This document shows, piece by piece, positions 9,752 to 33,833 of a stretch of DNA of 54,340 nt. Origin of the DNA: a virus; the IMG/VR virus record IMGVR_UViG_3300002091_000038, positions 1-54,340 of that record. One strand, 5' to 3'. Both the position numbers and the translations under genes were made by a program. Within the stretch, counting starts at the first letter, position 1; the number at the start of each line of letters is the position of its first letter. The notes under the pieces were generated by a model. The model did not search any database and was not told the DNA's origin. It was given only the letters and a program-made list of their open reading frames with translations.

Positions 9752-10048
9752 ATGAAGATTTTACCACTCCTCTACCTGTGTATTTTTCTGGCGTCATGTG
9801 CGAATGATCCCGAAAGTGCTGCTCGGGCAAATGCGTGGTTGGCACAGTACAATGCTAACAATTTGCAGCAACAACAGGCCAATGCATATCAGTCGCAGGC
9901 CAATTATTATGACCGCGTAGGCCATCCCCAACCAATGCCGTTGAACATTACCCCGGTCACCCCATACAGAGGCGACATTCGCACATTGAATGGAACCTCT
10001 TACTATAATGGTGATGGCACATCCACCTTTAGAGGCACAGTCTATTAA
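9752..10048 (+). CDS. Small lipoprotein (moron-like)
   Basis: MKILPLLYLCIFLASC has a signal peptide and lipobox (LASC). The mature part is Q/N/Y-rich. The gene is visibly more AT-rich than its neighbours, is a lone plus-strand gene in a minus-strand context, and its stop overlaps the stop of the giant gene (TTAA). Confidence 0.7.
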   Translation: MKILPLLYLCIFLASCANDPESAARANAWLAQYNANNLQQQQANAYQSQANYYDRVGHPQPMPLNITPVTPYRGDIRTLNGTSYYNGDGTSTFRGTVY

Positions 10049-13000
10049 TGATGCGAGGTCTGTTTCTTGGCTGGTGGCAACGTCTCGCGCAAGCCGGGCA
10101 CAGCCGCTTTGATTGAGTCGCCGTAGGTCTTCACCTGGCGCTTCACCGGGTCGGTGTCTTCGGCGAGCTGTTTGAGCCCCAGCGGGATCACGCTCTGTGC
10201 CAGGCGGTGGCGCTGGTAATCACCCTCATGGTCAAAGCGCATGATGCTGGTGGTATCGTTGAAGAACGGCACTTCTTGGAGCAATCCAAGCGCGCCTGCC
10301 AGGCTTCCTGTGCCAAGCCCTTTCTTCACGCCTGTGGAGCGGCCATGCTCTTTGATCATGGCATCACTCACGCGGGCCATTGTGGCGCCCACCTGCATGG
10401 CGTTCATAGCCGGGGTGTGCAAGAGCTGGTGTGAAATCGTGGTGTCGCCCACCTTCACATCTCCCGGCCCCACGTCGCCAGGTTTGCGCTTCTCGTTCTC
10501 CTGGCGGTATCCGCCCACCATCGCAGGATTGCAGAAGCCAAAGAGGATCATGGCTGCGCCAAGGCTGCCCTTCTTCAAGTGACGCATGAATGCATCCGCC
10601 TCCTCGGGCTTCATGTTGTCGAGTCCGCGGTGAAGCAATCCAGCAAGCTCAACGGCCGCCCGGGGAACGCCCAAAGCGTAGCTGCCCACCGTTTCGAAGG
10701 CGACGTTGGTAGGCACTTTCACAATGGGCAGAAGAATGCGACTAAACGCGGCGGCCGTGGGGCCGGCGACATCATGTTTTTTCGAATTCTCCCAGCTGTG
10801 CATCAGCTGTTCAAAACCCTTGGTCACAAAGTTGTCCTGCATGAAGATGGACCTGTTAGCGTCTAGATAGGCATCCTTCATGATGATTTCCTGAATTACC
10901 GGGTCTTTGACGTCCACACCACGGCGCATGAGGTAGTCCGCCCGCTTCTGCAGGGAGCGATGGAACTCGGCCATTTTGGCCGGCGATTTGATCAAGGCAT
11001 GGATGTGGCCAAAGTAGTCGATGACAGAGGGGTTTAAATCCTCGAAGTGGCGGCCGCCAAACTTCATGTCTAGGTCGCTTTTGCCGGTCTTGAGGATCTG
11101 CCATGACTGCTCCATGGCGTGCGTGAGTCCGTCAACTACCGCACTCACTTCGGCCTTGGATGAAAAACCGCCTTCACGCGGCGCCGCCTCGGCGATGCGG
11201 CGGAAACCGGGAAGCATCGAGTAAAAGCCGCCAATCGCCTCCTCTGCTGGTGTGATCACCAACCGTAGTGCAGCCGCGCCAGCCAGCTTTTCAATCGTGT
11301 GGTAGCCGGAAAGCAGGAAACCCCGCCGCCAGCGCACCAGAGTGTCGAGCGTTTTGCGATACAATGGCAGTTTGGCCAGGCGCTGGGCCTCAACACCACG
11401 GGCAAATTCCAGCTTTTTATCTTCGTAGGTACGCCGCAGTGCCAGCGCTTCCTTGTCGAGTTCTAGCTTGGGGCGCTCGGTCTTGCTGAAATCGCCCTTG
11501 TCGAGCCTGCCTTGCAGCTTCTCAGTCATGGCAGCCAGCCGCTTCTTGTAGGCTGCCAGCGCGATTTCTGCCGGTGTGCGGTTCGGGGTTTTGGCGGCAA
11601 TCGCTTCGTCGCGTACCTGGCGCAAGCTTTCCAATTCGGCCTTGAGGGCGCGTAGCTTTGCGTCTGGCACCATTTCTGGCCGGTTGCTCCTTTCTTTTTC
11701 ACCCTTGGCAATCTCGCGCTCCACCTTCTCGATAGCGCGCTCGGCGGCTTTCTTGGCTGCCTCCACACGATCAGCATTCGAGACGCCGGGGCGCTCGTTC
11801 TTCTCCACTTCCCGCAAGACATCAGACAACCGATCGTGCTCAAATTTGAGTGATCGTGCTTCAGCATCCAGGGGGATGGGTTTGCCAGGCTCGGGCGCGG
11901 GTTTGCCGGCAAGGCGTTCCTGTAGCTCACCGATGCGTTTCACCAGCCCGGCTTTCAAACGGTCCAAGGCTTCCGCCTGGGGGATGCCCTGCGACTCGCG
12001 CAAACGGTCCCATTCAGCCTTGGCGGCATCGCGCTCGGCCATGGCATTCTTCGTGCGTTCGGACGGTTCAAACGGCTTGCCGGCGGGGCGCGTGAGCTTG
12101 TCCTGTTCCACCATGCGGCGGTAGTTCTCCGCGCTGGCCTTGTAGCTGCGTTCGGCCTGGCGGTTCCACTTCGTTTCCGAACTGGGGCCGGTCAAATCGT
12201 CCATGTAGCGCTGCAGCTCGTCGGCTTCTTTTTTGAGGCCGTTCAGCTCAGCATCATACTGCACTTGCTCGCGGGGATCGCGGGGTTTGGCGCGGCCTTC
12301 CATCTCCCGGTGCAAGCGGTCAATTTTGTTCTGCAGGCGGTTCTTCACCGCTTCCCGGGCGCTGGCCAGCTGCTTTGGCCCCTCGGTTTCAATGCCCATC
12401 TTGCGCATTGTATCCTTGAGCTTGGTGGTGAGGTCCATCACCTCGGGGGAGGGCTTTCCAGGCTGAAAACCGCCCTTGAGCGGAGCCTCGCCACGCAAGG
12501 CGCGTTCGATAGATTCGACCAGCTTGGCCTGGGCCTTCATCTCGCGCATGCGGGCCTTGAGCACGTCGCTGGATGGTTTGGTGACCTGGCCATAATCCGT
12601 CCAGGCACGGCGCACTTCGGCCGGGGTCAACTCAGGGAAAAAGCGGGTGACGTCGGCATGCACCTTGGCGTTGAGTTCATGCACGTCGTTCACGCCGGCC
12701 GCCACATGCGCCTTGGCAAACTCCTTGGCAATCTTGGGGTCAAACTCCCAAATGTCGAGCGTGCCCATCTTCATCCGGTGCGCCACGGAATCATAAACCC
12801 CTTCGGGGGTGGCGGCGCGTGCGCGGGCGGCCGCCTTGTCGGCAAAATCCTTGCGGGTCTGCTCCAGCATCGACTTGGATCGATCAAAGATCGCTTCCAA
12901 GTGCGGCCGGATGGCTTCACCAAACTCCTCGATCATGTGACCGCTCCACTTGGCGAAATCAACGGCCCCTTCGGCAAGGTAGCTGGCCCCGATGATGGTG

Positions 13001-15981
13001 TGGTCAATGGTGGACCGCACAAACTGGAAACCCAACGGATCAGCATGCAGGCGCCCACGGTCTGCATTCAGACGGGAGCGGGCAGCCTTGCGCGCTTCCT
13101 GAAAGAAGTTCTTCGCCTGGTCAGTAAGCGGAACACCAGCCTCGGTTTGCACGCGCTCAGAGGCGCGCTGCTCACCCTCAAACTGGCGACTTTCGCGCAT
13201 GGCAGCGCGCTCATCCTGGGCCATCGCCTTGTCACGGGTGCGCGCCTCATCACGGCCACTGCGGCGCGTGGCGATGTCTTCTTTCAGTTTGGCAATCAGC
13301 GCATCCGGCGTGGGCGCATCAATGAGGTTGTCGGCGTGAGCAGCGCTGGCCAGTTTGTCAATGTCGCGGCCCGTGTCGTTTGCAAAGCCGGCGTAATCGT
13401 GAGGCGAATCCTTGGCGAACTGGCGCAAGGCATTGTGCTCGCCGTGATCGCCTTCCACGCGGCCCATGTCACTCACTTTAAGCTTTGGCGGCCGGGCAAT
13501 GCCACCTTCGGAGCGTAGAAAGTCCACAGTGTCCCAGTCCACGTTATCAGCGCGGTCTGGCGTGCTGTCACGGTAGCGGAGTTCCTTGGGCTGTGCAGCG
13601 CGCTCGGCACGGGCCTTGAGGCGTTCACGGGCGGCATTGGCACGGGCGGCCACTTCACCCTGCACTTCGGCCTGGATCTTGGCCAAAGCTTCCTGGGCCG
13701 CCTGGTGTTCGGCCGCCTCGTTCTTGGCCGTGTGTTCGTCCATGGCTTTGGCAGCTGTGTCAAGCTCGCCATGCAGCTTCAAGACGTGCTTCATCTCCTG
13801 TTCGGAGAGGTTTTCGCCTTTGGCGGCGCGGAAGGTGGCCAGCATGTTTTCCACGCTGTCATCCTCATCGCGCATCATCTTGCGGGCGTTCAATCCACGG
13901 CCGGTTTCGCGGCCTGCGGCGCGGGTGGCTTCATCGACCTTATGCAAATCATCGAGGGCCATTGAAAGCTCTGCCTGATCACCTTCAGCCGTGTCTTTGG
14001 GCGCATCGTTCACCTTCTTCACCAGCTCGCGGACAATGCCACGGCGGCGCATCTTCTCATGGAGCAGCAAGGCGTTTTCCTGATCGTTGAGCGCGGTCTT
14101 GTCGCCCTTGTTGATCGCTTCCACCAGACGCATGCCGGCGGCCGAATCCTTGCCTGCGGTGGCAACGGCATCACTCCAGGCCTGGCCCCAGTCGCGAGCG
14201 GCCTGTTTCACGATGGGATCAGCGCCACGGGCGGCGCGTTCTGCTTCCATTACCGCGTTTTTGGTGGACGTGGCGCCGGCAGGCAGTGGCGGCGGTGTTG
14301 CGGCCGGTGGCGGTTCGGCGCTCGCAGGTGGTGGCGTTTCAGGTTCTGCGGCCGGTGGCGGCTCTTGGGCGGGAGGCTCCTCAATTGGCGGCTCTACCAG
14401 CGCAGGGTCGGCAGGCTCAACAGGCTCAGAGGCAGCGGCGGAAGCGCCATCTGAATCAGCGGCAGGCGGCGGAGTGCTGTCCGGCTCTGCGCCGGGTTCG
14501 GCGCTGGGTTCCACTGGTGTTTCGGGCGCGGGTTCATCGCCTGCTCCTGGCGCTGGCGGCGTTTGGTCTGCTGGTACTGGGTTTTCATCAAGGGGCGGCG
14601 TCTCAACGGCGGCTGGCGGCGCTTCTGCGGGTTGCGCTGGCGGCATGTAGGGCGCGTTGGGATCGGTGGGCAGCTCCACGGTTTCTGCCACGGGCGGCGC
14701 TTCCGTGTCTGCGGCCGGTGCGGGCTCTTGGGCTGGCGCTTCACTGGCGGCCGCCCTCTGATTGAGCCGGTCAATGACAGCGGCGTGCTCGGTGTTCGCC
14801 GCGTCCAGCGGGGCAAACATATTGCCCTCATGGTCCGGAGAAACCACCTGTGACCATTCGCCTTTCGGGTTCTGGTAGTAGGTCTGGCCGTCGATGAATG
14901 CGGTGCGGCCCTGTGGACGGGCTAGCAGGGAGGCGGTCTTTTTCAAACCCTCGGCCACACCAATGTGCGCCGTGGTGAGTAGCGCGCCGGAAAGGCCCTG
15001 TTCAACGGCCGCCTCCAGTGTGTCTGCCGCCCCCGCCTGGGGATTGTCTCGGGTGTGCTGGGCAGCGCCAAACACAGCCTGTTCAGCGGCGCTCTTGCCA
15101 ATCTGCGCGAGCTTGCTGGCTGTCTCCACGGCTTGCACAGCCTTGGCTCCATGCAGGAACGGGGCGGCAAGCATGAGCTGGTTCACGGGATCGGCAGCGC
15201 TGGCCAGGTGTTCGCGCATGGATTCTGGCAGCATCTGCGCGCCTGGGGAGTCGATGGCGTCTTTCACCAGTTCCTTGCCCATCTTCTGCACGGGGTTCAA
15301 GGTGAGGTTGGTGCCAAGCTGCTCCCATGCGGCCGGGTTGCGCGTCTTGAGGTAGGATGCCAGCAAGGGCATGTTTTCGGGATCTTTGAGCGCCGGCAAT
15401 TCCTTGGCGTGCTCATCCATCCATGCTTTCAGCTTGTCTTTGTCGCCCACGGGAACATCACCGTCGCGAATGGACTGCTGCAGCCCGGCGAGCGCTTTTT
15501 GCTGCTTGATATGGTCCGCATTGCTGTGGCCGCCACCAATGTCACCACCAGAAAGACCCTCGCCGATCAAGCCGAACCAATCGAGCGCGTTGCCAGCCTC
15601 GGCCTTGACGAACGACTTGCTGATTTCGCCGTGGGCATAGAGGTTCACAGGGGAGCCGGGTACAAGATCACCAGAGGTAGCGGCTGCCACTCCGACATCT
15701 TTGCCCATGCCGGTAATCATGCCGGGCAGGCTGGTCACCACGTTCGCGGCTTTCTCCCAAAACGTCGGGGCGGCGCGTTCCTGCAGGTGATCAGCGAACT
15801 CACCCCATGCCTTTTGCCGCTCGGGTGTCCACTCGCGTTCCCGTCCCATCTCATTGTGGGCAGAGTCGAGCATGGTGTTCAACGCGAACGCCCGCTTGGC
15901 CGGTGGCAGCTGGTGAAACCGTGGATCATTGACGTTGCGAAAAACCTCCTGGGGCGTGAACGTCGGCGTCTCGTCTGGCAT
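10045..15981 (-). CDS. Giant (1978 aa) virion-associated/ejection-type protein
   Basis: Single uninterrupted ORF and last gene of the late block. It has a ~160-aa P/A/E-rich linker (about 14275-14760), long K/E/R/A coiled-coil stretches and hydrophobic segments near the C-terminus. No polymerase or other catalytic motif was recognised. Confidence 0.55.
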   Translation of the reverse strand: MPDETPTFTPQEVFRNVNDPRFHQLPPAKRAFALNTMLDSAHNEMGREREWTPERQKAWGEFADHLQERAAPTFWEKAANVVTSLPGMITGMGKDVGVAAATSGDLVPGSPVNLYAHGEISKSFVKAEAGNALDWFGLIGEGLSGGDIGGGHSNADHIKQQKALAGLQQSIRDGDVPVGDKDKLKAWMDEHAKELPALKDPENMPLLASYLKTRNPAAWEQLGTNLTLNPVQKMGKELVKDAIDSPGAQMLPESMREHLASAADPVNQLMLAAPFLHGAKAVQAVETASKLAQIGKSAAEQAVFGAAQHTRDNPQAGAADTLEAAVEQGLSGALLTTAHIGVAEGLKKTASLLARPQGRTAFIDGQTYYQNPKGEWSQVVSPDHEGNMFAPLDAANTEHAAVIDRLNQRAAASEAPAQEPAPAADTEAPPVAETVELPTDPNAPYMPPAQPAEAPPAAVETPPLDENPVPADQTPPAPGAGDEPAPETPVEPSAEPGAEPDSTPPPAADSDGASAAASEPVEPADPALVEPPIEEPPAQEPPPAAEPETPPPASAEPPPAATPPPLPAGATSTKNAVMEAERAARGADPIVKQAARDWGQAWSDAVATAGKDSAAGMRLVEAINKGDKTALNDQENALLLHEKMRRRGIVRELVKKVNDAPKDTAEGDQAELSMALDDLHKVDEATRAAGRETGRGLNARKMMRDEDDSVENMLATFRAAKGENLSEQEMKHVLKLHGELDTAAKAMDEHTAKNEAAEHQAAQEALAKIQAEVQGEVAARANAARERLKARAERAAQPKELRYRDSTPDRADNVDWDTVDFLRSEGGIARPPKLKVSDMGRVEGDHGEHNALRQFAKDSPHDYAGFANDTGRDIDKLASAAHADNLIDAPTPDALIAKLKEDIATRRSGRDEARTRDKAMAQDERAAMRESRQFEGEQRASERVQTEAGVPLTDQAKNFFQEARKAARSRLNADRGRLHADPLGFQFVRSTIDHTIIGASYLAEGAVDFAKWSGHMIEEFGEAIRPHLEAIFDRSKSMLEQTRKDFADKAAARARAATPEGVYDSVAHRMKMGTLDIWEFDPKIAKEFAKAHVAAGVNDVHELNAKVHADVTRFFPELTPAEVRRAWTDYGQVTKPSSDVLKARMREMKAQAKLVESIERALRGEAPLKGGFQPGKPSPEVMDLTTKLKDTMRKMGIETEGPKQLASAREAVKNRLQNKIDRLHREMEGRAKPRDPREQVQYDAELNGLKKEADELQRYMDDLTGPSSETKWNRQAERSYKASAENYRRMVEQDKLTRPAGKPFEPSERTKNAMAERDAAKAEWDRLRESQGIPQAEALDRLKAGLVKRIGELQERLAGKPAPEPGKPIPLDAEARSLKFEHDRLSDVLREVEKNERPGVSNADRVEAAKKAAERAIEKVEREIAKGEKERSNRPEMVPDAKLRALKAELESLRQVRDEAIAAKTPNRTPAEIALAAYKKRLAAMTEKLQGRLDKGDFSKTERPKLELDKEALALRRTYEDKKLEFARGVEAQRLAKLPLYRKTLDTLVRWRRGFLLSGYHTIEKLAGAAALRLVITPAEEAIGGFYSMLPGFRRIAEAAPREGGFSSKAEVSAVVDGLTHAMEQSWQILKTGKSDLDMKFGGRHFEDLNPSVIDYFGHIHALIKSPAKMAEFHRSLQKRADYLMRRGVDVKDPVIQEIIMKDAYLDANRSIFMQDNFVTKGFEQLMHSWENSKKHDVAGPTAAAFSRILLPIVKVPTNVAFETVGSYALGVPRAAVELAGLLHRGLDNMKPEEADAFMRHLKKGSLGAAMILFGFCNPAMVGGYRQENEKRKPGDVGPGDVKVGDTTISHQLLHTPAMNAMQVGATMARVSDAMIKEHGRSTGVKKGLGTGSLAGALGLLQEVPFFNDTTSIMRFDHEGDYQRHRLAQSVIPLGLKQLAEDTDPVKRQVKTYGDSIKAAVPGLRETLPPAKKQTSHH

Positions 15982-15983
15982 GG

Positions 15984-17477
15984 CTACTTGCTAAGGAGTT
16001 TCTGCACCTTGTCCCATCCATCAGGATCGGCCTTGGCTTCGGGCGGTGGCGCGGATCCTGGAACGCTGGCTGGGGCTGGGGCGGCCGGTGCTGGCGCCGT
16101 GGTGCTGGCTGGTGGTGTCGTGGCTGCCGGCGGCTGGGTCATTTTGTCCAGGGTGCCGGCAATGATCTTGGCGTAGGCATTTTGGGCGGCTGTCTTCAAC
16201 TCCGGCGGTGTGTCCGGGTTGGTGATCAGGTGCGACAAAGAGGACGTGGTGAGCGTCGTGGCCTTGGGCAAAATTGGAGTTCGCGGCTCGCCTGCTATTT
16301 GCACCCGCTTCCATGTGGCAGGGTCTTTGTTGTAGCTGGTAATTTCGTTGTCCAGACGCTGGTTGATCGGCCCCCACAAGTGCGGCTGCGAAATCTGCGG
16401 CGTGCTCGCCGGGTTGTTCGGTGCAATGCCGGAAATGGCCGCCATACGGTCGGACACGTCATTGGGCAGCGTGGCCAGGCGTGATTTCCAATAATCAAAG
16501 CCGCTGTTCCATGCCTTGCTGTTGCGCTGAAACTGCACATCCGGCCGCAGACCGTTGGCGGCATTGATCTGCTGGGCACGGGCGATGATGGCCGGATCTT
16601 TGGTGGTGGTGGCTACTTCCATCATGCGGTCAAGCTGATCGGCATTTGGCAGCCCGGCACTAGCCTGACTGAAACCCATCACCTGCTTGCCGTTGCGGGC
16701 GTCCGGTCCATCGGGCGAGTAGATGTCAAACCGGCCGGTGAGCTTCTTGCCGTTGTACTCCTCGGCCGTGTGATCCATGTAGCGGCCCGTGTGCGTGGTG
16801 CCATCGGCAAAATGCAGGTTGAACGCTTCGCCCGGCTTGATTCCTGCGGAAGTGACGGCCTGGCGCACGTCCGGGGAAAGCGCGATGTCACCAGCCTTGA
16901 GCTTGTTAGGCGTGTCCTTGCCGTCGCGAATCTGCTGCGCTTCTTCATCGCTCACAAACGCACCAATGCCGTTCTTGCTGTTGTCATCCGGGGACGTGTC
17001 GCCCTGGTAGCCGTAGGACGTGATGGCTCCGTTTGCCGTAGGGACCACGCTCTGCCCTGTGGCCGTGGCGTTTACGAGGTCCATGGCGCTCTGCTTAATG
17101 GCGGCATCTGCCGTCTGTGTCTGCAAGCGGAGGGCGGCTGAACCAAGAGCGAAATTGGTCGCTGCCAGGTGTGATTGCTGCTGGGCAAGGTTGAGGTTGC
17201 GGATCTGCTCATTCATCGGCCGCTGGTCAATGCCGTACTGCCGGTCTTGATCCTGCTGGCCCCACACCTGCTGCTGCCGGTTGTGAAGCTGGTTCTGCCA
17301 GTCCTGGGCGCTGGCGCGGTCCTGATCCTGCTGCTGCCACATCTGCGGCCGCCGCACCAGGTCCTGCCCCTTCGCGTAGGCGTTCAGAGTCAGCCCCAAG
17401 ATGTCCAGGGGTGGAACACTGGTGTCGAAGTCGCCACGGCGAGCGGTCGGGAGGTTGGGCTGGAATACGGCTGTCAT
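15984..17477 (-). CDS. Internal virion protein with a DPBB/3D-like peptidoglycan-hydrolase segment (putative)
   Basis: 497 aa with a Q-rich N-terminus. The central ITSYGYQGDTSPDDNSKNGIGAF...LKAGDIALSPDV...GRFDIYSPDG resembles RlpA/3D-type wall-degrading domains. The C-terminus is P/A-rich. Confidence 0.45.
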   Translation of the reverse strand: MTAVFQPNLPTARRGDFDTSVPPLDILGLTLNAYAKGQDLVRRPQMWQQQDQDRASAQDWQNQLHNRQQQVWGQQDQDRQYGIDQRPMNEQIRNLNLAQQQSHLAATNFALGSAALRLQTQTADAAIKQSAMDLVNATATGQSVVPTANGAITSYGYQGDTSPDDNSKNGIGAFVSDEEAQQIRDGKDTPNKLKAGDIALSPDVRQAVTSAGIKPGEAFNLHFADGTTHTGRYMDHTAEEYNGKKLTGRFDIYSPDGPDARNGKQVMGFSQASAGLPNADQLDRMMEVATTTKDPAIIARAQQINAANGLRPDVQFQRNSKAWNSGFDYWKSRLATLPNDVSDRMAAISGIAPNNPASTPQISQPHLWGPINQRLDNEITSYNKDPATWKRVQIAGEPRTPILPKATTLTTSSLSHLITNPDTPPELKTAAQNAYAKIIAGTLDKMTQPPAATTPPASTTAPAPAAPAPASVPGSAPPPEAKADPDGWDKVQKLLSK

Positions 17478-17479
17478 GA

Positions 17480-18385
17480 TTACATGGCCCCTTCTGAGAG
17501 GTTTTGCTGGGCAGCGGTGGGTGTGCCGTTGCCGGTGAAAGCATTGTAGCCGCTCGGCGTCTGGCTGGCTTGGTACACGCCATAATTGGCACTGTTGTAG
17601 GCTGCCGTTCCAGGGGTGTTAGACTGGTTGTAAGCACCCATCACCGCGCCAATGCCCTGTGTGGCCGATCCGATCAGTTGCTGGTTGGCCTGGTTCTGCG
17701 AGCGAATCATGTCATTGTTCATCATCGCGGAGTTGTATCCCACCTGATACTGGGCCCCGCGAAGCGCCATCTGCGCGTTGAACTGGTTCATGTTCTCGGA
17801 CTGCTGCAACTGCACCATCTGGCCCGGGTCCATGGTGGTGTAGCGCATCGCGTCCATTTGCGTGCTCAACGGCAGCGCCTGGCGGTACATGCTGTAGAGC
17901 GAGCGATATTCTTGCGTGCCCTGTGACTGCAGGCCTTCCTTGGTGAGCCCGAGATAGGCGTTGTAGTTCTCGTTTGCCGGGCCGCTGCCAATATTGGTCA
18001 CTCCCGAATCGAGCATGTTGCGCCCCAGTTCATCGCGGGTGCTTTTGGACAGCACGCCATTCAAGTGATCCTCAATGATCGAATTCGTATCGTTGCGCTG
18101 CGCGTTGAACTGATCGGCCCCGCCAAAGAGCTTGCTCATCGCGGTTTCCAAGTCCGACGTGGCGCGCTTGTTGGAGGCGGTGGCGATGTTGCCAGCATTG
18201 GCCGCGCCTTCGCCGGCATTGTAGTTCAATGCCTTCTTGGCCAGTTTCCAGACATTCACCTGGGAGGGTGTGGAAATGCCGTTGAAATTGGGCAGTTGCG
18301 GCGCTCCCGGCTGGTTACTGGATGATATGGCTGCCGCACCGACTGCGCCGACTGCTCCAATAGCTGCTGCTGCAACGACTCCCAT
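17480..18385 (-). CDS. Internal virion/ejection protein (putative), N-terminal TM, Q/N-rich
   Basis: MGVVAAAAIGAVGAVGAAAISS is a hydrophobic N-terminus, followed by N/Q/S/G-rich sequence. It lies directly upstream of the two other ejection-type genes. Confidence 0.4.
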   Translation of the reverse strand: MGVVAAAAIGAVGAVGAAAISSSNQPGAPQLPNFNGISTPSQVNVWKLAKKALNYNAGEGAANAGNIATASNKRATSDLETAMSKLFGGADQFNAQRNDTNSIIEDHLNGVLSKSTRDELGRNMLDSGVTNIGSGPANENYNAYLGLTKEGLQSQGTQEYRSLYSMYRQALPLSTQMDAMRYTTMDPGQMVQLQQSENMNQFNAQMALRGAQYQVGYNSAMMNNDMIRSQNQANQQLIGSATQGIGAVMGAYNQSNTPGTAAYNSANYGVYQASQTPSGYNAFTGNGTPTAAQQNLSEGAM

Positions 18386-18386
18386 A

Positions 18387-18902
18387 TCAGTGTATTTCTT
18401 GAATGTTCAGACGGCTCAGTTCTTTGATTCGCTGTGCGTCATAAGGAACGCCCGGGCAGCACACTGCCCAAATGGCCGGCATCTGTTCGGTGATGTCGTG
18501 GAAGGGCACGCGCAGGGCAATGCGGCCGGCAAAACCCGCCTGACACTGGCCAAAGTTTTGCAAAATCCTCGGCCAATGCTCAATTAATCCGGGCTGGCGC
18601 ATGTGGCGAATCCATGAATCGCGGCAGCGGTCAATATCATCTGGCTCAATAACAATGATTGGGCCGCCCACCATGCCTAGATGCACGGGCAATGAGGCGA
18701 TACCGCTGGAGCAGTCGATGACGTTTTGGGCTTCCTGGCCCGTCAATTTGTAGGCGTAATCCAGGGGCGAAAGGATCTCCCGCCTCGCATCATCGCCGCA
18801 GCCATCATGGAAGGCAAAGCTGTGCGGCGGCTGCGTGAGCGCAACCGACAGCCAGGCCGTGCGGCAGCGTGGCAGGGCGATGATGTGAGTGACGTGCTTC
18901 AT
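18387..18902 (-). CDS. Hypothetical protein with sulfotransferase-like PAPS-binding motifs (weak)
   Basis: 171 aa. IIALPRCRTAWLSV resembles the 5'-PSB loop PKSGTTW, and PIIVIEPDDIDRCRDSWIRH resembles the IIYVxRNPxDxxVSxYH strand-loop. The protein is shorter than canonical sulfotransferases. Its start overlaps the upstream gene's stop (ATGA). Confidence 0.3.
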   Translation of the reverse strand: MKHVTHIIALPRCRTAWLSVALTQPPHSFAFHDGCGDDARREILSPLDYAYKLTGQEAQNVIDCSSGIASLPVHLGMVGGPIIVIEPDDIDRCRDSWIRHMRQPGLIEHWPRILQNFGQCQAGFAGRIALRVPFHDITEQMPAIWAVCCPGVPYDAQRIKELSRLNIQEIH

Positions 18903-19513
18903 GCTTCTTTAGGTTTGCCGCCGGCCATGGCATTCACCCACGCCCCGGCCCAAATCGGCAGGCGGGAGAGAATGAAGATCATGGACTCAACACCGAATTG
19001 CAGCTGCACCAGTTCGCAGGCCAGGGCGGTATAAAGGGCCATGTTCGGGAACAGGCTCGGATGCTTTTCCTGCACGATGGCAGTGGCATCATCAAGGAAT
19101 GCGGCCGCCAGGGGGAACTGGGCGCGCAAGGAATCATCCGCAGCCTTCAATTCGGGCGCGATGCCGTTTTTGTGGATGCTGTGGCCAAAGCCGGGGATCT
19201 TCTGGCCGCTGGCGACAACTTCGCGCAAGGCGTCCTTCCATGCGGACTGCTCATGATTGAGCGCCTGCAGCTGGTAGAACCAGAGGGTGCGCGTGGTGGT
19301 GACAGGGGCGTGCGTGCCGCCAATCGAGTTGATCGCGGCCGTGATCGCGGTTTCCATCGGCATGCCAAGCTGTCCTTGGATCACGGCAAGCTGGGTGGAT
19401 GCCGGCATGTTCTTGCTTGCGGCATCGGAGTGTGCCTGCATCACCTTCTGGAGAAAGTCGATGGCGCGTGGCTGGGGCTTCTGCTTGCAGAATGGAAGAA
19501 TGGCGTGGATCAT
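18899..19513 (-). CDS. Citrate-synthase-fold (citrate synthase/citryl-CoA lyase-like) protein lacking the catalytic Asp
   Basis: 204 aa. IGGTHAPV aligns with GPLHGGA, IPGFGHSIHKNG with GFGHRVYK, FPNMALYTA with PNVDFYSG (Asp replaced by Ala), and SRLPIWAGAWVNAM with ARxxGWxAH. Confidence 0.55.
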   Translation of the reverse strand: MIHAILPFCKQKPQPRAIDFLQKVMQAHSDAASKNMPASTQLAVIQGQLGMPMETAITAAINSIGGTHAPVTTTRTLWFYQLQALNHEQSAWKDALREVVASGQKIPGFGHSIHKNGIAPELKAADDSLRAQFPLAAAFLDDATAIVQEKHPSLFPNMALYTALACELVQLQFGVESMIFILSRLPIWAGAWVNAMAGGKPKEA

Positions 19514-20499
19514 CGGAATCGGCGGTTACTGTGGTTCTTACTTGTTAGACGGCGGGAAACGGAAATATTGAGCGCCTTGCGCTGGCCTTGATCGAGCTTG
19601 GCGGCCTTGCCTTTGAGCAGGCTCATGGCCTTGCCCATGAAGCCGGAACCGATCTGAAAGCTGCTGTCATCGAAGGCGTTGCAAGCCTGGGCGGCGTAAC
19701 GGTAGGCTTCGCGGTGCTGAACAGGTGAAACGCCGTCAAGATCGTAGATGTCATTGAAGCGCAGGGACACCATGGCAGTGACCGTGTGGCACTGGCCGCG
19801 CTGCAGGGCGGCGTTGAAATTCAGGTGTGGCAGGTGGTAGCGGGTGTAGCAGGGCGATTGATCACGCGGCTCCATGCGTGACAGCCAGTAGGGTCCGTTG
19901 ACATCGCTCCATGCGCCAAGGTCGATGTGGCCGCCGGTCACAGGCTTGGAAACGGCGGTAATGCTGGAAAACACCTTGGACAAGCGCGGGCTGCGCGTGG
20001 CGCTGGCCTTGCCCACCGGGATGCTGCAGCGCTGAAACTTGTTCGAAGCGTCGTAGCCGGTCACAAGCACGGCTGCGCCTTTTGCTTCCTCGGCATCGGA
20101 CACGGCGAACAGAGGCAGGGGTGATGGCAGCTCGCGGCTTGTCGGGAACTGGGTGCCAAGGTTGCGAATGCAGCGGATGTCAAAGGCGTGCGTGTGCTCG
20201 CCCGGGCCCGCCTCCAGAAACTGCCAGCCCACGGGGAAGATGTGCGCCGGGTAGCCGTCGATGTTCAGCTCCTTGATCTTCTCGAAGCGTTCGGGGAGCA
20301 CGATCACGCCATCATGGGCGGGGAAGCGAACGGTGAACTCGGTGCCAGGAAAATCCTGGTCGTTCATGAACAGCTCGTTGATCCGGTTGTAAACGCCAAG
20401 CGCCTCCATGGTGCCGGCGGCATCGCAGGTGATGTCCACGCCTGTGCCGCGCACATACGGGGCAATGACGGGAAGGATGTCACGAATGCGAAACAGCAT
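19510..20499 (-). CDS. Virion structural protein (putative tail/adaptor)
   Basis: 329-aa ORF in the packed late block, with an ATGA overlap with the downstream gene. No diagnostic motif. Confidence 0.35.
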   Translation of the reverse strand: MLFRIRDILPVIAPYVRGTGVDITCDAAGTMEALGVYNRINELFMNDQDFPGTEFTVRFPAHDGVIVLPERFEKIKELNIDGYPAHIFPVGWQFLEAGPGEHTHAFDIRCIRNLGTQFPTSRELPSPLPLFAVSDAEEAKGAAVLVTGYDASNKFQRCSIPVGKASATRSPRLSKVFSSITAVSKPVTGGHIDLGAWSDVNGPYWLSRMEPRDQSPCYTRYHLPHLNFNAALQRGQCHTVTAMVSLRFNDIYDLDGVSPVQHREAYRYAAQACNAFDDSSFQIGSGFMGKAMSLLKGKAAKLDQGQRKALNISVSRRLTSKNHSNRRFR

Positions 20500-20527: not shown

Positions 20528-21007
20528 TTAGCCAGTAAAAGCAAGCGTGTAGAGCGTGTAATCGGGGGACGTGCCTTGGAAAAAGTTGGTGTTGGCGTGC
20601 AGGTCGGGAACTCCGGGGGCGGTCCCGTCCGCCAGTTTCCAGCCCGCGAGCGGCCTGGCCGCCATGTCCAGCGCCACGCTGGCCTTCACGCGAACGAGAG
20701 TCATCAGCTCGCCCACCTGGCCGCCGATGCTCCAGCCCTGGAACTCAGGCAGCCAGAGCGCCATCCCGAGAAACCGCCCCTGATCATCAATCATGAACCG
20801 GGGCTTGTCCTGATCCTCGGGGGCGGCCGCGTCCAGTGTGCCCACGGTGTAGCCGAACAAGACGCCCTCCGCTTTCACATCCGTGGCGAACTGGGCAAAC
20901 CAGCGCTGCAGGTTCTCCGTGGTAAGGCAGAAGCCCGGTGGCGGCGGGGGCACGGAAAGACTCGAGCGAAAGACGCTTTGACCAAGGATGCTAGGGAGCG
21001 ACGGCAT
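20528..21007 (-). CDS. Hypothetical virion-block protein
   Basis: 159-aa ORF that overlaps the upstream gene by 17 nt. No motif. Confidence 0.35.
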   Translation of the reverse strand: MPSLPSILGQSVFRSSLSVPPPPPGFCLTTENLQRWFAQFATDVKAEGVLFGYTVGTLDAAAPEDQDKPRFMIDDQGRFLGMALWLPEFQGWSIGGQVGELMTLVRVKASVALDMAARPLAGWKLADGTAPGVPDLHANTNFFQGTSPDYTLYTLAFTG

Positions 21008-22721
21008 AATTGAAGGGGTTGGGCTGGCAGGTGGTGTCTGCAGGCACGTTCTTGGGCTGGCAGCTGCTGCCAGTGTTCATTTTCTCCGGTACAGGCAGAG
21101 GGTCGCCAGTTTTGAATGACACCTCTTCAAGCCGGGCCGCGCCCGTGATCGTGAATGCCGTGGCCAGCTCAAAAAACACGTCCTGCCCCTTTGGTGGCGA
21201 GGGTGGATTCTCACGGGGCAGGTGTTGCGATGGAACAGCCTGGTCGCAGTCGCCGGCACTCACCACGGATGTCTGAGAGCTGAACCATGGCACGAAGTTC
21301 TTGCGGTCTTTTGACCACCAGCCATTGACATTGACGGTTCCTGACACATCGCCCAGACGGTAGGCCGCGCCCTCGAATTTCTTGGTGGCAAAGGCGGCAT
21401 CAAAGTCATTGGAGCGCAGTTGAATGAAGCGCTCAATGGGAGTGGCCCGGGAGCCAACGTCAAAGCCCGTGGTCAATCCGGTAATTTCATAGATCCGGTT
21501 CACGCCATCGGCATCGAGCGAGACGGTAAAGCAGCGCTGCTGCCCGTTCACCGTGGCGGTGTCCAGTGAAGCAAAGCCAAGACCTGTCCACAGGCCATCC
21601 CAAACGATTTCTTGACTGCCTTGCTGCGGGGTTTCCTGCTGCACTGCCAGGGCTTTGTGCGCCACGGTCCATCGTCCATCATCGCGCTGTGCCCGGAACG
21701 GCAGCACGGTAGTCATGGTGCGATCATTGAACCTTACGGCCTGCCGCCAGCGGCGGAGCGCGGAGAATTCGTCGCGATAGACCGGATACATGGATTCATC
21801 GGCCATGCGCAGGCGGGCAAAGTCATCGCGGCGAATGGATGCCACCAGTGATGTGATGTGGCCATGCTGGTCGGAAAAGACCATATCCTTGCCCCGGCGC
21901 ACAATGGCCCCATGAGCGCAGGCGCCGGTTGTCGGCATTGGCGTGGTGGCGATGTCCTGGGTGGTCCATTGATCCCGTGGCACAAAGACGTTGAACGCCC
22001 GCGAGCCGAACTGGCAGAACGCCGTCAATGCGCCAAGGTCGCTCTGCTGGGTGAAAGAGGGTGAGAACTCCAGCCCCATCACCGGGCCCAAATTGGCCGG
22101 GATCTGGAAATAGCGGGCGTTCTTGTAGTAGGCAGTGCCCTCGGAAAACGAGAGAACGCTGTCGCTGGTGGGATCAGCCTCATGGTTGGAGGCGTAGATG
22201 CGTGTGCGGTCCGGGGACACCACGAAGAATCTGCCCCACCCGTCCGTCATCATGGTGCCGCAAGGAACGCTCGTGGCCTTGGTGCCCTGCGTGGCAAGCA
22301 GGCCGCGAATGATCAGCGGGGGTGAAACACCATCCTGGGCGACGGCATAGGGCCCGCGCTGGCCAAAGAACACGAACTGGCTGTTTTTCGAGAACGCCCT
22401 TTTCTTGCGCGTGAGACAGCGGGTGTTGCCGGTCAAAATGTCGTAGGACACAATATGCCCGTCGAACGCATAGAGCATCATCGGCCCGCGCTCGGCATTG
22501 TAGAAAGCGGAGCCCTGATAAATGCCATGTTCCACCACCTGCTGCGCGGTCCCGTCCAGCCATGACATAGGGCAGCGCACAAAGGATGGCCGTGAATCAA
22601 TGAAGCCGCCGCGAACGGTGCCGTTTACAATCAGCGGACAGCAATCAACGGGAGTGAGCCGGGGATTGTTGCCAGAGGCGTTCATGCCGCCCGCGAAGCT
22701 GTTGTAAATGACGGTTGGCAT
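20991..22721 (-). CDS. Large tail protein (putative nozzle/tubular-type, beta-rich)
   Basis: 576 aa of beta-strand-rich sequence. It immediately follows the fibre-like gene, with a 1-nt start/stop overlap at 22721. Confidence 0.35.
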   Translation of the reverse strand: MPTVIYNSFAGGMNASGNNPRLTPVDCCPLIVNGTVRGGFIDSRPSFVRCPMSWLDGTAQQVVEHGIYQGSAFYNAERGPMMLYAFDGHIVSYDILTGNTRCLTRKKRAFSKNSQFVFFGQRGPYAVAQDGVSPPLIIRGLLATQGTKATSVPCGTMMTDGWGRFFVVSPDRTRIYASNHEADPTSDSVLSFSEGTAYYKNARYFQIPANLGPVMGLEFSPSFTQQSDLGALTAFCQFGSRAFNVFVPRDQWTTQDIATTPMPTTGACAHGAIVRRGKDMVFSDQHGHITSLVASIRRDDFARLRMADESMYPVYRDEFSALRRWRQAVRFNDRTMTTVLPFRAQRDDGRWTVAHKALAVQQETPQQGSQEIVWDGLWTGLGFASLDTATVNGQQRCFTVSLDADGVNRIYEITGLTTGFDVGSRATPIERFIQLRSNDFDAAFATKKFEGAAYRLGDVSGTVNVNGWWSKDRKNFVPWFSSQTSVVSAGDCDQAVPSQHLPRENPPSPPKGQDVFFELATAFTITGAARLEEVSFKTGDPLPVPEKMNTGSSCQPKNVPADTTCQPNPFNYAVAP

Positions 22722-24490: not shown

Positions 24491-25033
24491 TCAGAAGAGT
24501 TTGCGAACGATTACCTGCCATTCCTTGTGCAGTAACTCGTATTGCCCCTCATGGGTGGCCAGGAACGCATCAACCCCGATCTTGGGCGGCAGGTTGCGCG
24601 AGTTCGAATCCGTCCAGAGGTAGTCATCAAAGATGAGGATGCCGCCCACGTTGAGGTTGTGCCAGGCAAGCACTGCATCCTGAATCACCGCCGGGGCCTT
24701 GTGGTCCGCGTCCACAAAGATGAAGTCGAAGCGCTGGCGGATGCCGCGAAGCAGGTTGTGGGTGTTGCCGCGCCGGGGTTCGCAGCGCATGAAAACATCG
24801 GCTTCAATGATGTTGGCCAGGAACCGCTTGTGGACCTCTGGGGACCACCATCCATCAATGCAAATGAGGCGTGAATCCGGGTGCGTGAGGATGTTCTGGA
24901 GAAACCAAATGGCGCTGCGGCCCTCATAGGTGCCAAGCTCCAGGCCGCTGGCGGGCCGGTCTTTCAGTGGGGCAAGGTATTCCATCCACTTTTCGCAGTG
25001 GCGGCTTGACCAGTCGGTGGTGAATTCAGGCAT
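24491..25033 (-). CDS. Class I SAM-dependent methyltransferase (O-methyltransferase/Methyltransf_24-like)
   Basis: GLELGTYEGRSAIWF is a motif I-type glycine loop, and RFDFIFVDADH...GGILIFDDY is the acidic post-I/II pattern typical of small O-MTases. Confidence 0.7.
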   Translation of the reverse strand: MPEFTTDWSSRHCEKWMEYLAPLKDRPASGLELGTYEGRSAIWFLQNILTHPDSRLICIDGWWSPEVHKRFLANIIEADVFMRCEPRRGNTHNLLRGIRQRFDFIFVDADHKAPAVIQDAVLAWHNLNVGGILIFDDYLWTDSNSRNLPPKIGVDAFLATHEGQYELLHKEWQVIVRKLF

Positions 25034-25034
25034 C

Positions 25035-25967
25035 TTAACCGTCTTCTTTGCGGGTTGCGAAGTAGCCGGAAACGCCGGCCATCATTTCAGGGTGGGCATC
25101 GCGACTCCATTGCACCCACCCCTCGGGGTGAAGCTCAAGATGCCTGTCAACGTCGAGATTGGCGATGGCCTTGTGGCGCTCCACATAGCCCCGCGTGTTG
25201 CGGTCGCCATGCCATTCGTGATACACAGTGCCTGGGGTTGCCAGCACAATGCCACCCTGGCTGTCCAGCCAATGACGGATGCCATCGCGCCAGCGGTAAT
25301 AGGGCGTGTGATTGTTGCCAAGCCCCTTGAGGTCCGTGCTGCGGAGCGGGTTCTTGGACACGGCGCAGTAAAAGATGATGTCGCCCTGGCCGGTGATCGC
25401 GTTGCCATAGAGGCCGCCGTGACGGAACATCGAGCGCCGGGCGGCCATGGCGAATCCTGGGTGGCCTTTGCAGGGGTCGCTGTCGGTCACATGCGCCGCG
25501 CCTGGAAGGTAGAATTGCACGTCGCCATTGCGGTCAAGCCAGACGGCGTGCGCGAATGGCTGCACAATGGGGGCAACGTCGAGAAGCGAAGAGGTGAGCA
25601 GGTGCCATTGCGGGTTGTCAAACCACACGTCGGCATCCACCCACGCAATCTTGGTGTAGCTCTCGGGCACCAGCTTTTCTGCTGCATTCAAGAGCGCTTC
25701 CTTCTGGAACATGATGCCATGGTTGTTCACCACCACCTGGCGCCAGCCGGGAAGATTTACCGTCATGGATGGCTGGCCCGGAAGCAGCGCCTCAACCCCG
25801 TACACGGGAATGCCGGCGGCGCGCATCTGGAGCAGGAATCGGCGCAAGTTCTGGCGCGGCCGTGAGAAGCCAGCCCAGTTGAAATGACAGGTGATCACTG
25901 CCAGGTCGCCACCCTTCGCTGGCGGCGTGCTCTGTGGCGTGCTTGCGGCGTAGATCGGGTAATTCAT
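25035..25967 (-). CDS. GT-A-type glycosyltransferase (putative)
   Basis: DLAVITCHFNWAGF is an N-terminal Rossmann strand, and KIAWVDADVWF is a DxD-type motif. 310 aa. It is separated from the methyltransferase by 1 nt. Confidence 0.6.
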   Translation of the reverse strand: MNYPIYAASTPQSTPPAKGGDLAVITCHFNWAGFSRPRQNLRRFLLQMRAAGIPVYGVEALLPGQPSMTVNLPGWRQVVVNNHGIMFQKEALLNAAEKLVPESYTKIAWVDADVWFDNPQWHLLTSSLLDVAPIVQPFAHAVWLDRNGDVQFYLPGAAHVTDSDPCKGHPGFAMAARRSMFRHGGLYGNAITGQGDIIFYCAVSKNPLRSTDLKGLGNNHTPYYRWRDGIRHWLDSQGGIVLATPGTVYHEWHGDRNTRGYVERHKAIANLDVDRHLELHPEGWVQWSRDAHPEMMAGVSGYFATRKEDG

Positions 25968-32686: not shown

Positions 32687-33775
32687 TTACTCGTCTTTGG
32701 ACAGGTAGTGATTCTTCGTGGTTTCCTCGCTGGTGTGTCCAAGGTTCTTCTGCGCCTCTTTCACGCCCGCGCTACTGGCCAGCAATGCCTCCTCAGTGAT
32801 GCGCTTCACGTCATCAGCATAAAGTCCACGGAGTCGATGCAAAGGCTTCTTGGATTTGCCGGTGTAGGGTCGCAACCAGTCCTGGGGCACGCGCTCAAAC
32901 CATCCGTCCCGGTCGGTGGTGGACGGATTCACGATCATCATTCCCTCAGGGATCGCCAGCAAGGCAGCCGCGAACGCCGGGTTGATCACCATGGCGCGAT
33001 AGATGGCCCCGGTCTTGGTGAGGTAGTCTTCTTCTGGCCTGTCATGGAGTTCCACAAACACCTTGCCCTTCTTCTCTGTGAGCCAGTCACGACGGCAGGC
33101 TTTGATTTCGGACCTGCGCAGCCCTGCCCACCGTGCCAATCCAAGGCAGAAGTACATTTCAGGGGCCATGGTGGCGAGTTCTTCAATGCCAGCGTCAAGG
33201 TTGGCGACGTCGGCGGTGGGTGGCGGGGCTTTGATTTCTGGCAGCCATTGAATCACCGTGGCATCCTCGGGCACGATCATCTTGTGTTCGGCGTACACGG
33301 GCCGCAAGGCGGGAATGAACGGGCTGCAGGCCTGCCGGATGGCAGAATTGATCTTGGCGTTTTCCGGCCGGCGCTTCGACAAGTCCAGGCCTGGCAGTCC
33401 CATGGCGAGGTGGCACTTCGTGGCGTAATCCTTCCACAACCGGGGGCCGATGTCGGCGAGCTTCACCACATTCATCCCCTTGCCCCAGGTGAATTCGATC
33501 ATCTTTTTCAGGCGGCCCACGTTCGCCTCGGCAGAGACAGGATTGCAGCGCTTTGGCATCTGCAGGTAGAGCTTCGTGGCATCCTCCACGGTTTCATGGC
33601 CCTTGGGGCGCTTCTTGGCCGCCTGCTCCTCAATGTGGCGCTTCGTGGCTCGTTTCGCCTCCGCAAGATCCGTGGTACCAGTGCCAAAGTCGATTTCGAA
33701 TCCCTTCATGCGGCAGCGCGCCCGCCAGGTGCCCGTGGTGTTCTTTGAGAGCGAGTAGGCGCGCCCGTTCACCAT
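32687..33775 (-). CDS. int: Tyrosine integrase
   Basis: Catalytic signature present: WAGLRRSEI (Arg), HRLRGLY (HxxR) and NLGHTSEETTKNHY (His...Tyr). The start is taken at MVNGRAYSL (33775). The ORF stays open to 33892, but that stretch is made of the TTTCG-type repeats. Confidence 0.85.
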   Translation of the reverse strand: MVNGRAYSLSKNTTGTWRARCRMKGFEIDFGTGTTDLAEAKRATKRHIEEQAAKKRPKGHETVEDATKLYLQMPKRCNPVSAEANVGRLKKMIEFTWGKGMNVVKLADIGPRLWKDYATKCHLAMGLPGLDLSKRRPENAKINSAIRQACSPFIPALRPVYAEHKMIVPEDATVIQWLPEIKAPPPTADVANLDAGIEELATMAPEMYFCLGLARWAGLRRSEIKACRRDWLTEKKGKVFVELHDRPEEDYLTKTGAIYRAMVINPAFAAALLAIPEGMMIVNPSTTDRDGWFERVPQDWLRPYTGKSKKPLHRLRGLYADDVKRITEEALLASSAGVKEAQKNLGHTSEETTKNHYLSKDE

Positions 33776-33833
33776 TACCTTCTCTCGTTTGGTTTTCGTT
33801 TGGCTTTCGTTTGAGTCCTGTTTTGAGCCTGAG

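Follow-up and report, generated by a model that had tools for sequence, protein, structure and literature searches.

Which function could a citrate-synthase-like protein have in a phage, and why is its gene joined to that of a sulfotransferase-like protein amid putative genes of the virus particle? This question is raised by two genes at positions 18387-19513 of the IMG/VR virus record IMGVR_UViG_3300002091_000038, which was analyzed over its full length of 54,340 nt and is called the window in the following. Both genes are located on the minus strand. ORF A (19513..18899) encodes a protein of 204 amino acids (aa) that was assigned to a truncated citryl-coenzyme A (CoA) lyase/citrate synthase fold and is here called a mini-CSL (CSL, citrate-synthase-like) protein, while ORF B (18902..18387) encodes a minimal sulfotransferase-fold (ST-like) protein of 171 aa that is placed in the phrog_10855 family through its relatives. 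The stop codon of ORF A and the start codon of ORF B overlap in the sequence ATGA at 18899-18902, as a first-pass annotation made from the sequence alone had noted when it described the two genes as translationally coupled. Both folds are known, and the family of ORF B already exists as an uncharacterized PHROG. Undescribed, as far as our searches show, are the degenerate family of mini-CSL proteins, its confinement to phage-like contigs and its coupling to a minimal sulfotransferase-fold protein in a structural operon.

The first-pass annotation had made its proposal depend on two findings, a match of ORF A to the citrate synthase family and the conservation of the gene pair in relatives, and both were obtained. 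ORF A matches the Pfam family PF00285 (Citrate_synt) with an E-value of 1.2e-12 and 48 bits compared to a gathering cut-off of 27, the match spanning profile positions 154-350 of 357, i.e. the C-terminal half only, and PF00285 is likewise carried by all seven of the seven close homologues. Citrate synthases of the PDB were matched by phmmer and by the family profile, by the latter with E-values down to 7e-17. The AlphaFold2 model of ORF A, calculated with a 35-sequence family alignment, reached a predicted local distance difference test (pLDDT) value of 93.1. Foldseek searches with this model yielded 168 PDB matches at E <= 1e-3, the top 50 of which were all citrate synthases (CS), methylcitrate synthases or citryl-CoA lyases (CCL). 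Closest was the CCL structure 6hxp with a query-normalized template modeling (TM) score of 0.81 and a root-mean-square deviation of 3.1 Å over 208 columns, and CS and methylcitrate synthase structures gave TM scores of 0.65-0.74, so that ORF A is predicted to adopt the all-helical CS/CCL fold. A chance resemblance to citrate synthases is excluded. The NCBIfam models for citrate synthase, methylcitrate synthase and citryl-CoA lyase gave at most 32 bits with ORF A versus equivalog cut-offs of 193-620. Judged by its sequence, ORF A is a truncated and catalytically degenerate member of the CS superfamily that resembles the ligand-binding remnant of a CCL module.

Motif equivalences were taken from HMMER alignments and residue conservation from the 35-sequence family alignment. 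In pig CS the catalytic residues are His274, His320 and Asp375, and the ligand is bound by His238, Asn242, Arg329, Arg401 and Arg421' of the second subunit. All CS/CCL motifs named in the first-pass annotation are present in ORF A in the same order, aligned to LHGGA, GFGHRVYK, PNVDFYSG and GRLPGW, and all lie on the minus strand. IGGTHAP (19304-19324) is the counterpart of LHGGA, its His68 corresponding to pig His274, with G65, H68 and P70 invariant. PGFGHSIHK (19169-19195) takes the place of GFGHRVYK, which comprises the adenine-recognition loop and the second catalytic His; here P107, G108, F109 and G110 are invariant. PNMALYTA (19025-19048), with N157 and A159 invariant, corresponds to PNVDFYSG, and the codon at 19037-19039 within it specifies Ala159 in place of the catalytic Asp. 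SRLPIW (18950-18967) is equivalent to ARxxGW or GRLPGW of CS; its Arg184 corresponds to the carboxylate-binding pig Arg401, and R184 and W188 are invariant.

The loss of the catalytic Asp and the shortness of the protein, both pointed out in the first-pass annotation, apply to the family as a whole. Ala159 is invariant across the 35 sequences, and in the further lineages inspected the position is occupied by Ala or Gly, never by Asp. His111, the counterpart of His320, is kept in the clade of the window and is Asn in most of the mini-CSL family, the family consensus at the adenine loop being PGFGNSF.KD.IDP. The Arg of the DPR motif is deleted or replaced throughout. Besides the residues already given, the invariant set (S39, G65, H68, P70, PGFG, P120, N157, R184 and W188) contains S39 and P120, and nearly invariant are His28 (corresponding to His238), Asn35 (Asn242) and the family-specific Arg75, while K115 (pig Arg324) is mostly conserved. 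Since ORF A ends soon after the RxxxW motif, a counterpart of Arg421 is unlikely. ORF A lacks a complete catalytic triad, the full set of oxaloacetate/citrate-binding arginines, an equivalog-level score and the full-length architecture, for which at least about 256 aa are taken for CCL and at least about 360 aa for CS. Due to the loss of the catalytic Asp and of one oxaloacetate-binding Arg, and in most relatives of the second catalytic His, ORF A is predicted to be unable to condense or cleave citryl-CoA; its residues rule it out as a citrate synthase as well as a citryl-CoA lyase. The intact PGFG of the adenine loop and K115 suggest that binding of a nucleotide of the 3'-phospho-ADP type may have been retained.

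When ORF B was searched alone, no Pfam, NCBIfam or PDB match was obtained, and the comparison with PHROGs gave a weak match to phrog_10855 (E 0.039). A profile built from seven close relatives retrieved at least 519 representative clusters, nearly all with lengths of 150-230 aa. Among 50 aligned family members, Sulfotransfer_3 was detected in 29 (best E-value 1.2e-9), Sulfotransfer_4 in 14 and Sulfotransfer_1 in 5, and 43 of the 50 matched phrog_10855 (best 1.1e-16). Relatives fused to further domains scored 36-48.5 bits with Sulfotransfer_3 at a cut-off of 27. The AlphaFold2 model of ORF B (pLDDT 96.7) gave sulfotransferases as best Foldseek matches, with TM scores of 0.57-0.62 and a probability of 1.0 (SULT7A1, 0.62; TPST1/2, NST and the OLS sulfotransferase); P-loop nucleoside monophosphate kinases came next with TM scores of 0.44-0.57 and were nearly equal by E-value. 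Through its relatives and by its predicted fold, the link of ORF B to sulfotransferases is significant.

The first-pass annotation had also recognized two elements for the binding of 3'-phosphoadenosine 5'-phosphosulfate (PAPS) in ORF B, of which one is supported. LPRCRTAWLS (18846-18875, minus strand) appears to be a variant 5'-phosphosulfate-binding (PSB) loop (PKSGTTW or PRSGTT), and IIVIEPDDIDRCRDSW (18612-18659, minus strand) aligns with the 3'-phosphate-binding (3'-PB) strand-helix element (R...S), Ser96 being kept and the Arg replaced by Pro87. The alignments of these two segments to the 5'-PSB and 3'-PB elements of SULT1A3 and TPST1 were obtained with profiles at marginal E-values of 0.015-0.03. 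In the profile of the ORF B family, GLPRSRTAWLS corresponds to the 5'-PSB loop and 'V.I.RD.....S' to the 3'-PB element, and the canonical PRSGTTW is present in gp66 of phage NP1. None of 99 unique family sequences deviates at P11, R12, A16 or H32, and all of them have either Asp or Glu at residue 33. His32-Asp33 (18804-18809, minus strand), located just past the PSB helix, is therefore a candidate for the catalytic base; if the SULT/TPST alignment is continued, it would come within one residue of the 'CGEE' segment of TPST. The Arg and Ser of the 3'-PB element are not conserved across the family and vary in members that are not linked to a CSL gene: ORF B has Pro87, Ser96 and a clade-specific Arg94, and the main CSL-linked clade has Lys87 and Glu96. 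ORF B thus has a predicted sulfotransferase P-loop-like fold and a 5'-PSB loop and lacks the 3'-PB motif; fold and phosphate/sulfate loop are supported, and PAPS as the donor is not established.

Some ST-like domains are fused to either of two C-terminal domains of approximately 150-190 aa (P0127, P0189 and P0207; P0185 and P0226) without significant Pfam match. One of these domains is helical with a faint match to DUF5444, and the other resembles an acetyltransferase-like fold by eye. The idea that the extensions represent ST-CSL fusions was rejected, as hhalign against the CSL profile gave a probability of 0.2%.

Relatives of ORF A are found almost only on phage-like contigs. A search of 5.8 billion proteins with the single sequence gave seven relatives, and the profile search gave at least 83 mini-CSL protein clusters, all of 102-223 aa and one of them with 257 members. 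In IMG/VR, 146 stretches with a mini-CSL were confirmed. Cellular homologues of the mini-CSL were considered as well, but the scan of 185,579 species genomes yielded only full-length citrate synthases of the Nonomuraea type and two contigs of metagenome-assembled genomes that carry the phage pair. No mini-CSL was detected in cultured phages by tblastn with ORF A and the distant CSL protein P0062, and the fold search with ORF A in the viral structure library BFVD gave no CS-like fold at E <= 1e-3. The statement of the first-pass annotation that a phage counterpart had not been described agrees with these results from BFVD and 50,697 phage records and with the literature searched, in which no description of a citrate-synthase-like phage protein was found.

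For the analysis of gene linkage, 94 CSL loci were fetched, 92 of which were assessable. An ST-like ORF was located directly downstream of the CSL gene and overlapping it in 86 of the 92. The overlap comprises 4 nt in all ten of the ten close loci and in the clade of the window, and 11 nt in the main distant clade, and further CSL-linked ST-like genes are present in the loci L137, L138, L157 and L159. Relatives of ORF B at intermediate distance (35-38% identity) again have an upstream, overlapping CSL gene. On a 47.8-kb contig that belongs to the same broad group of phages (L161:6001-7080) the order is reversed, the ST-like gene preceding the CSL gene in the same slot, with a homologue of the 576-aa protein of the window upstream of the pair and proteins of 323, 265 and 2268 aa downstream. 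CSL proteins are 28-36% identical between lineages whose flanking proteins, the 576-aa protein excepted, are no longer detected by BLAST. The retention of CSL at low identity, the intermediate relatives and the inversion in L161 go beyond frozen synteny. That the CSL-linked ST-like proteins form one clade was considered and not shown by best-hit analysis, and identities of 25-30% are too low to conclude independent recruitment.

ST-like genes also occur apart from CSL genes. Cultured phages of Pseudomonas (NP1 gp66, PaMx25, PaMx11 gp74, phiH1 GP01), Xanthomonas, Stenotrophomonas and Variovorax carry an ST-like gene and no CSL gene, and its public labels disagree ('hydrolase', 'putative nucleotide triphosphate hydrolase' and, for phiH1 GP01, 'similar to sulfotransferase'). 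In NP1-, PaMx25- and JG054-like phages it is overlapped by a small upstream 'Znf domain' gene (NP1 gp65-gp66, L135), and in NP1 it is found among genes for endonuclease V, ribonucleotide reductase and RusA. A role as the 5-hydroxymethyldeoxyuridine DNA kinase of thymidine-hypermodifying phages was considered and dropped, because PaMx11 gp74 is remote from the published modification genes gp46/47 and members of the family are also found in phages with modifications of a different type.

In unrelated marine podovirus-like contigs, the ST-like gene is located between tail genes and genes of large downstream proteins, following a T7-type tail tubular protein B (identified by tblastn to pelagiphages), a Phage_stabilise or a Gp10_C protein. 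In 19 of approximately 38 such loci (L100-L134; e.g. L100:4217-4789 and L113:3609-7018), a gene for a cupin of about 190 aa of the Asp/Asn beta-hydroxylase family (PF05118, 2.3e-10) overlaps downstream. The ST-like protein and the PF05118 cupin form a second recurrent ST-like pair. A lone ST-like gene is present in L162 and L163 between genes of 820-/547-aa proteins and of 373-/331-/2088-aa proteins. In the Pelagibacter phage HTVC204P (L156, 7018-7473; gp44), a putative acetyltransferase lies between tail tubular protein B and an internal virion protein. The placements of ST-like protein, cupin and acetyltransferase point to a recurrent small-enzyme slot between the tail and ejection genes of podovirus-like phages, which the ST-like gene frequently occupies with a variable partner: CSL on either side, hydroxylase or none. 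The literature searched on phage sulfotransferases, and on sulfotransferases with tail tubular or internal virion proteins, contained nothing relevant. As a separate observation, a 584-aa ORF upstream of the ST-like gene in L104 and L128 (4156-5910) resembles, on inspection of its sequence, a membrane-anchored adenylate/guanylate cyclase, which would be unusual on a viral contig.

In the window, the pair is embedded in a series of minus-strand genes. Upstream, a 329-aa gene without family match (19510..20499), syntenic in close relatives, overlaps the start of ORF A with its stop codon in a second ATGA (19510-19513), by which the two genes are coupled in the same way as ORF A and ORF B. The same operon contains the gene for a 576-aa probable tail protein (20991..22721), so named from remote homology. 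Downstream follow genes whose labels were inferred: a 301-aa putative internal-virion or ejection protein (17480..18385), beginning 1 nt past the stop codon of ORF B, a 497-aa putative ejection protein (15984..17477) after a 2-nt spacer and, again after 2 nt, a giant 1978-aa putative ejection or internal virion protein (10045..15981) as the last gene of the operon. From the 329-aa gene to the 1978-aa gene, all junctions are thus overlaps or spacers of 1-2 nt. No promoter-like sites were found within 9.5-24.5 kb of the window, terminator-like sites in this region were no more numerous than in shuffled sequence, and the GC content of ORF A and ORF B, overall and at third codon positions, equals that of the neighboring genes. 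Without promoter or terminator signals of its own and with matching composition, the pair is regarded as an integral part of a long polycistronic block and not as a moron.

The labels of tail and ejection proteins for the flanking genes were assigned from the order of the genes, the sizes of the proteins and a small number of remote hits and are to be read as putative. The 576-aa protein has homologues of 600-615 aa in L011 and L161, and a further homologue is a 1025-aa protein, to which it corresponds over the N-terminal 632 aa of the latter and which has carbohydrate-binding Fn3_assoc and CHB_HEX_C_1 domains at its C-terminus; near the gene of this 1025-aa protein, in L014, a 725-aa protein matches tail-fibre PHROGs. 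A relationship of the 576-aa protein to tail tubular protein B or Phage_stabilise was considered, and its profile gave no link. In L159, a Phage_capsid_2 gene lies approximately 4 kb upstream of the pair. Downstream of the pair there is always a protein of about 270-370 aa, then one of about 265-580 aa and then a giant one of 945-2268 aa. The 301-aa protein has a Gly/Ala-rich hydrophobic N-terminus, similar to that of the protein which follows the ST-like protein in L104, and a body rich in N, Q, S, T and Y. The 497-aa protein has no family or PDB match, and the label 'lytic domain' given to it earlier was not confirmed. For the 1978-aa protein no Pfam or PHROG match was obtained; among its size-matched counterparts (945-2268 aa) in distant relatives, one has a DUF7178 and one a KTSC domain. 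Neither ORF A nor ORF B has a PHROG structural match, nor does ORF A have one in BFVD, and it is by gene position that they are placed with the virion. The homologies of the 576-aa protein, the tail-fibre matches, the capsid gene in L159, the recurrent downstream proteins and the N-terminus of the 301-aa protein nevertheless support a virion role of the block around the pair.

The glycosyltransferase and methyltransferase pair which the first-pass annotation had seen upstream holds for one of its members. The product of the gene at 24491-25033 (180 aa, minus strand) is, according to its match to PF13578 (Methyltransf_24, 3.8e-19), a class I S-adenosylmethionine-dependent methyltransferase, located inside the structural block and kept in relatives. 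The supposed glycosyltransferase, the adjoining 310-aa protein (25035-25967, minus strand), has no family or PDB match.

The first 63 bases of the window (1-63) are exactly repeated at 54278-54340, which indicates a circularly closed assembly of approximately 54,277 bp and thus probably a complete phage genome. A 132-kb JGI contig (L002) carries an identical ORF A at its end; this contig may be a concatemer, or a host fragment with an integrated prophage. The window further encodes an integrase (32687-33892, minus strand; phrog_1, 3.9e-14), a primase (42066-44591, plus strand; 1.9e-94), a Dda-like helicase (40084-41469, plus strand; 1.1e-64) and, by a weak match (5e-4), the large terminase subunit TerL (2406-4256, plus strand), and HTH_3 and Bro-N genes adjoin the 1978-aa gene. 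Due to the integrase, primase and helicase together with the HTH_3 and Bro-N genes, it looks like the genome of a temperate phage. The rest of the genome is nearly devoid of PHROG or Pfam matches, and megablast against the 50,697 phage records revealed no relatives of the region at the nucleotide level.

The folds, the lost residues, the coupling and the conserved adjacency are the fixed points from which an explanation has to start. Tentatively, we favor the explanation that the pair is a single accessory module of the late operon, in which ORF B would act as transferase and ORF A as its non-catalytic ligand-binding partner on a target in the virion or in entry. Both genes would be co-transcribed and translationally coupled with the genes of tail and ejection-type proteins. 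ORF B, which keeps the phosphate/sulfate loop (PRxxT/S-A) and the invariant His-Asp/Glu, would be the constant and likely catalytic component. ORF A would be a CCL-derived partner for a ligand of the 3'-phospho-ADP type, i.e. CoA, acyl-CoA or PAP(S), and may present, buffer or regulate what ORF B uses as substrate or cofactor; the 3'-phospho-ADP moiety is common to CoA and PAPS and would offer a rationale for a nucleotide-binding partner derived from CS. Co-expression with tail and ejection genes suggests a target connected with the particle or with entry, which might be the S/T/Y-rich ejection-type proteins encoded just downstream or a component of the host envelope. Rather unlikely in its full form is the more specific proposal of a phage-specific two-protein system in which a dead CCL-fold subunit and a minimal sulfotransferase modify, e.g. 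by O-sulfation, ejection or virion proteins or a host-envelope receptor. The hydroxylase partner present elsewhere would fit the logic of O-sulfation, a hydroxyl group being made and then sulfated.

Several observations weigh against an accessory module directed at virion or entry. When ten flanking proteins were compared with Pfam and PHROGs, only the methyltransferase was recognized and the flanking 'ejection' proteins remained unmatched. The linked loci represent three of six CSL lineages at 50% identity and share synteny, so that much of the co-occurrence may be due to common descent. Three CSL lineages are without an ST-like gene, and there the CSL gene was found between a metallophosphoesterase and a single-stranded DNA-binding protein-like gene, before TerL or, by sequence inspection of a T7-like contig, between dCMP deaminase-like and T7-type primase-helicase-like genes. 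Conversely, CSL is absent from all 40 of the 40 ST-like IMG/VR loci fetched by the ST motif, and in the inspected regions of NP1, PaMx11 and Baskent_P4_1 the ST-like gene is located in an early or DNA-metabolism region. Since members of either family are also found without the other in replication or nucleotide-metabolism modules of other phages, a place in the virion is not inherent to either protein, and this tempers the proposals of the first-pass annotation, a pathway that modifies the virion or the host envelope or an injected effector. The degenerate 3'-PB motif of the ORF B family makes the use of PAPS uncertain. Finally, we infer complex formation, the identity of the ligand, the catalytic partner and the target, the structural models being of monomers.

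These separate occurrences are what an explanation by two independent host-takeover genes, neighbors by descent, would lead one to expect. ORF A would then be a pseudoenzyme that reprograms metabolism, for example by sequestering acetyl-CoA or oxaloacetate or by poisoning the host citrate synthase via dead hetero-oligomers, whereby oxaloacetate and aspartate would be spared for nucleotide synthesis, and ORF B would have a separate role. CSL genes without ST-like gene in replication and nucleotide-metabolism neighborhoods of T7-like contigs are in agreement with this view, as are the synteny of the linked loci and the ST-like genes that are present without a CSL gene in cultured Pseudomonas phages and at 40 or more IMG/VR loci. 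It accounts poorly for the overlaps of ATGA or 11 nt that are kept across lineages and for an adjacency that outlasts the inversion in L161. Poisoning by hetero-oligomers is moreover difficult to reconcile with the absence of the N-terminal CS half from ORF A, as this half carries much of the dimer interface in CS. We consider two independent host-takeover genes unlikely.

A retained ligand pocket without catalysis could also serve in anti-defense. ORF A might bind an adenine-nucleotide-based signal or cofactor as a sponge or decoy and ORF B might inactivate it by modification, and the proteins may be packaged. Small soluble pseudoenzymes with a kept ligand pocket suit such roles, Tad and Acb being precedents for sponges, and the pair adjoins ejection-type genes while in other phages the proteins are also found singly, in early regions. 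No PADLOC model was matched by the two proteins or by three relatives, no link was found in the literature, and we know of no defense system with a CoA-like signal. An anti-defense module is judged quite improbable.

In the same low range of probability is the view that ORF A has remained an enzyme whose chemistry has changed, acting as an acyl-CoA hydrolase or lyase on another hydroxy-acid-CoA via His68, Arg75 and Arg184 and making or consuming a substrate that ORF B transfers or sulfates. A dense cluster of invariant residues as in ORF A is indeed more usual for active sites than for scaffolds, and elsewhere ST-like proteins are paired with a real enzyme family, the Asp/Asn hydroxylases, able to create a hydroxyl acceptor. 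Most of the mini-CSL family, however, lacks two of the three canonical catalytic residues, and mutants of CS Asp375 and ACLY D1026 lose activity; no precedent for such altered chemistry is known to us. Very improbable is an exaptation of both proteins as structural or assembly components of the virion core without ligand chemistry, filling a slot like that of T7 gp13, since despite the position of the pair between tail and ejection-type genes in several lineages conservation is highest in the ligand-site motifs, CSL is better conserved than most of its structural neighbors, and both families are found in non-structural modules elsewhere.

An immediate consequence concerns annotation: several mini-CSL proteins carry the JGI product name 'citrate synthase', and with such an automated label they could be miscounted as auxiliary metabolic genes of the tricarboxylic acid cycle. 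The coupling of mini-CSL and ST-like genes in a late structural operon defines a testable accessory module, as do the recurrent small enzymes in the tail/ejection slot of unrelated podoviruses. Should the favored module indeed modify components of the virion or of entry, it would represent a new class of phage post-translational chemistry, and an ORF A that binds CoA-type nucleotides would be a new kind of viral pseudoenzyme. If the more specific two-protein modification system applied, a viral protein of the citrate-synthase fold would for the first time be given a functional role and sulfation would for the first time be evidenced in the biology of phage particles or of phage entry, and the system would point to a general tail/ejection 'enzyme slot' in podovirus-like phages.

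Among known systems, ORF A is most similar to CCL of Hydrogenobacter thermophilus (6hxp) and to the CCL module of ATP-citrate lyase (6hxm, 6hxo), with which it shares the motif order and the organization as a stand-alone CS-type module shorter than CS; its family profile matches CCL at 2e-14, and 6hxp is the best structural match. It differs by its length (204 aa versus 256-268 aa), by Ala in place of the Asp of NVD, by the loss of the Arg of DPR, by Asn instead of the His of GxGH in most relatives, and by a partner with a sulfotransferase fold instead of a citryl-CoA synthetase. With CS and 2-methylcitrate synthase (3tqg, 6s6f, 1iom, 7e8n), significant homology is shared and the counterparts of His238, Asn242, His274, Arg401 and the adenine loop are kept, whereas ORF A covers the C-terminal half of the profile only, lacks the catalytic Asp and remains far under the equivalog cut-offs.

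ORF B resembles the PAPS sulfotransferases SULT7A1 (5x2b), TPST1/2 (5wrj/3ap3), NST (1nst) and the OLS/CurM sulfotransferases (4gox/4gbm) in its predicted fold, the PSB-type loop and a strand-helix aligned to the 3'-PB element. With about 170 aa compared to 250-300 aa, it lacks their substrate-binding elaborations, and the Arg of the 3'-PB element is replaced by Pro. The phrog_10855 proteins of cultured phages group with ORF B by the family profile and share length, PSB loop and the invariant His with it, but they are only about 20% identical to it (NP1 gp66), have no CS-like neighbor and often follow a small Znf protein. In the acetyltransferase of HTVC204P and in the ST-like protein and hydroxylase of L113, other enzyme families are the partners and a CS-like protein is missing, and none of them is characterized in the literature searched; they nevertheless occupy the same slot and show the same tight coupling to structural genes as the pair formed by ORF A and ORF B.

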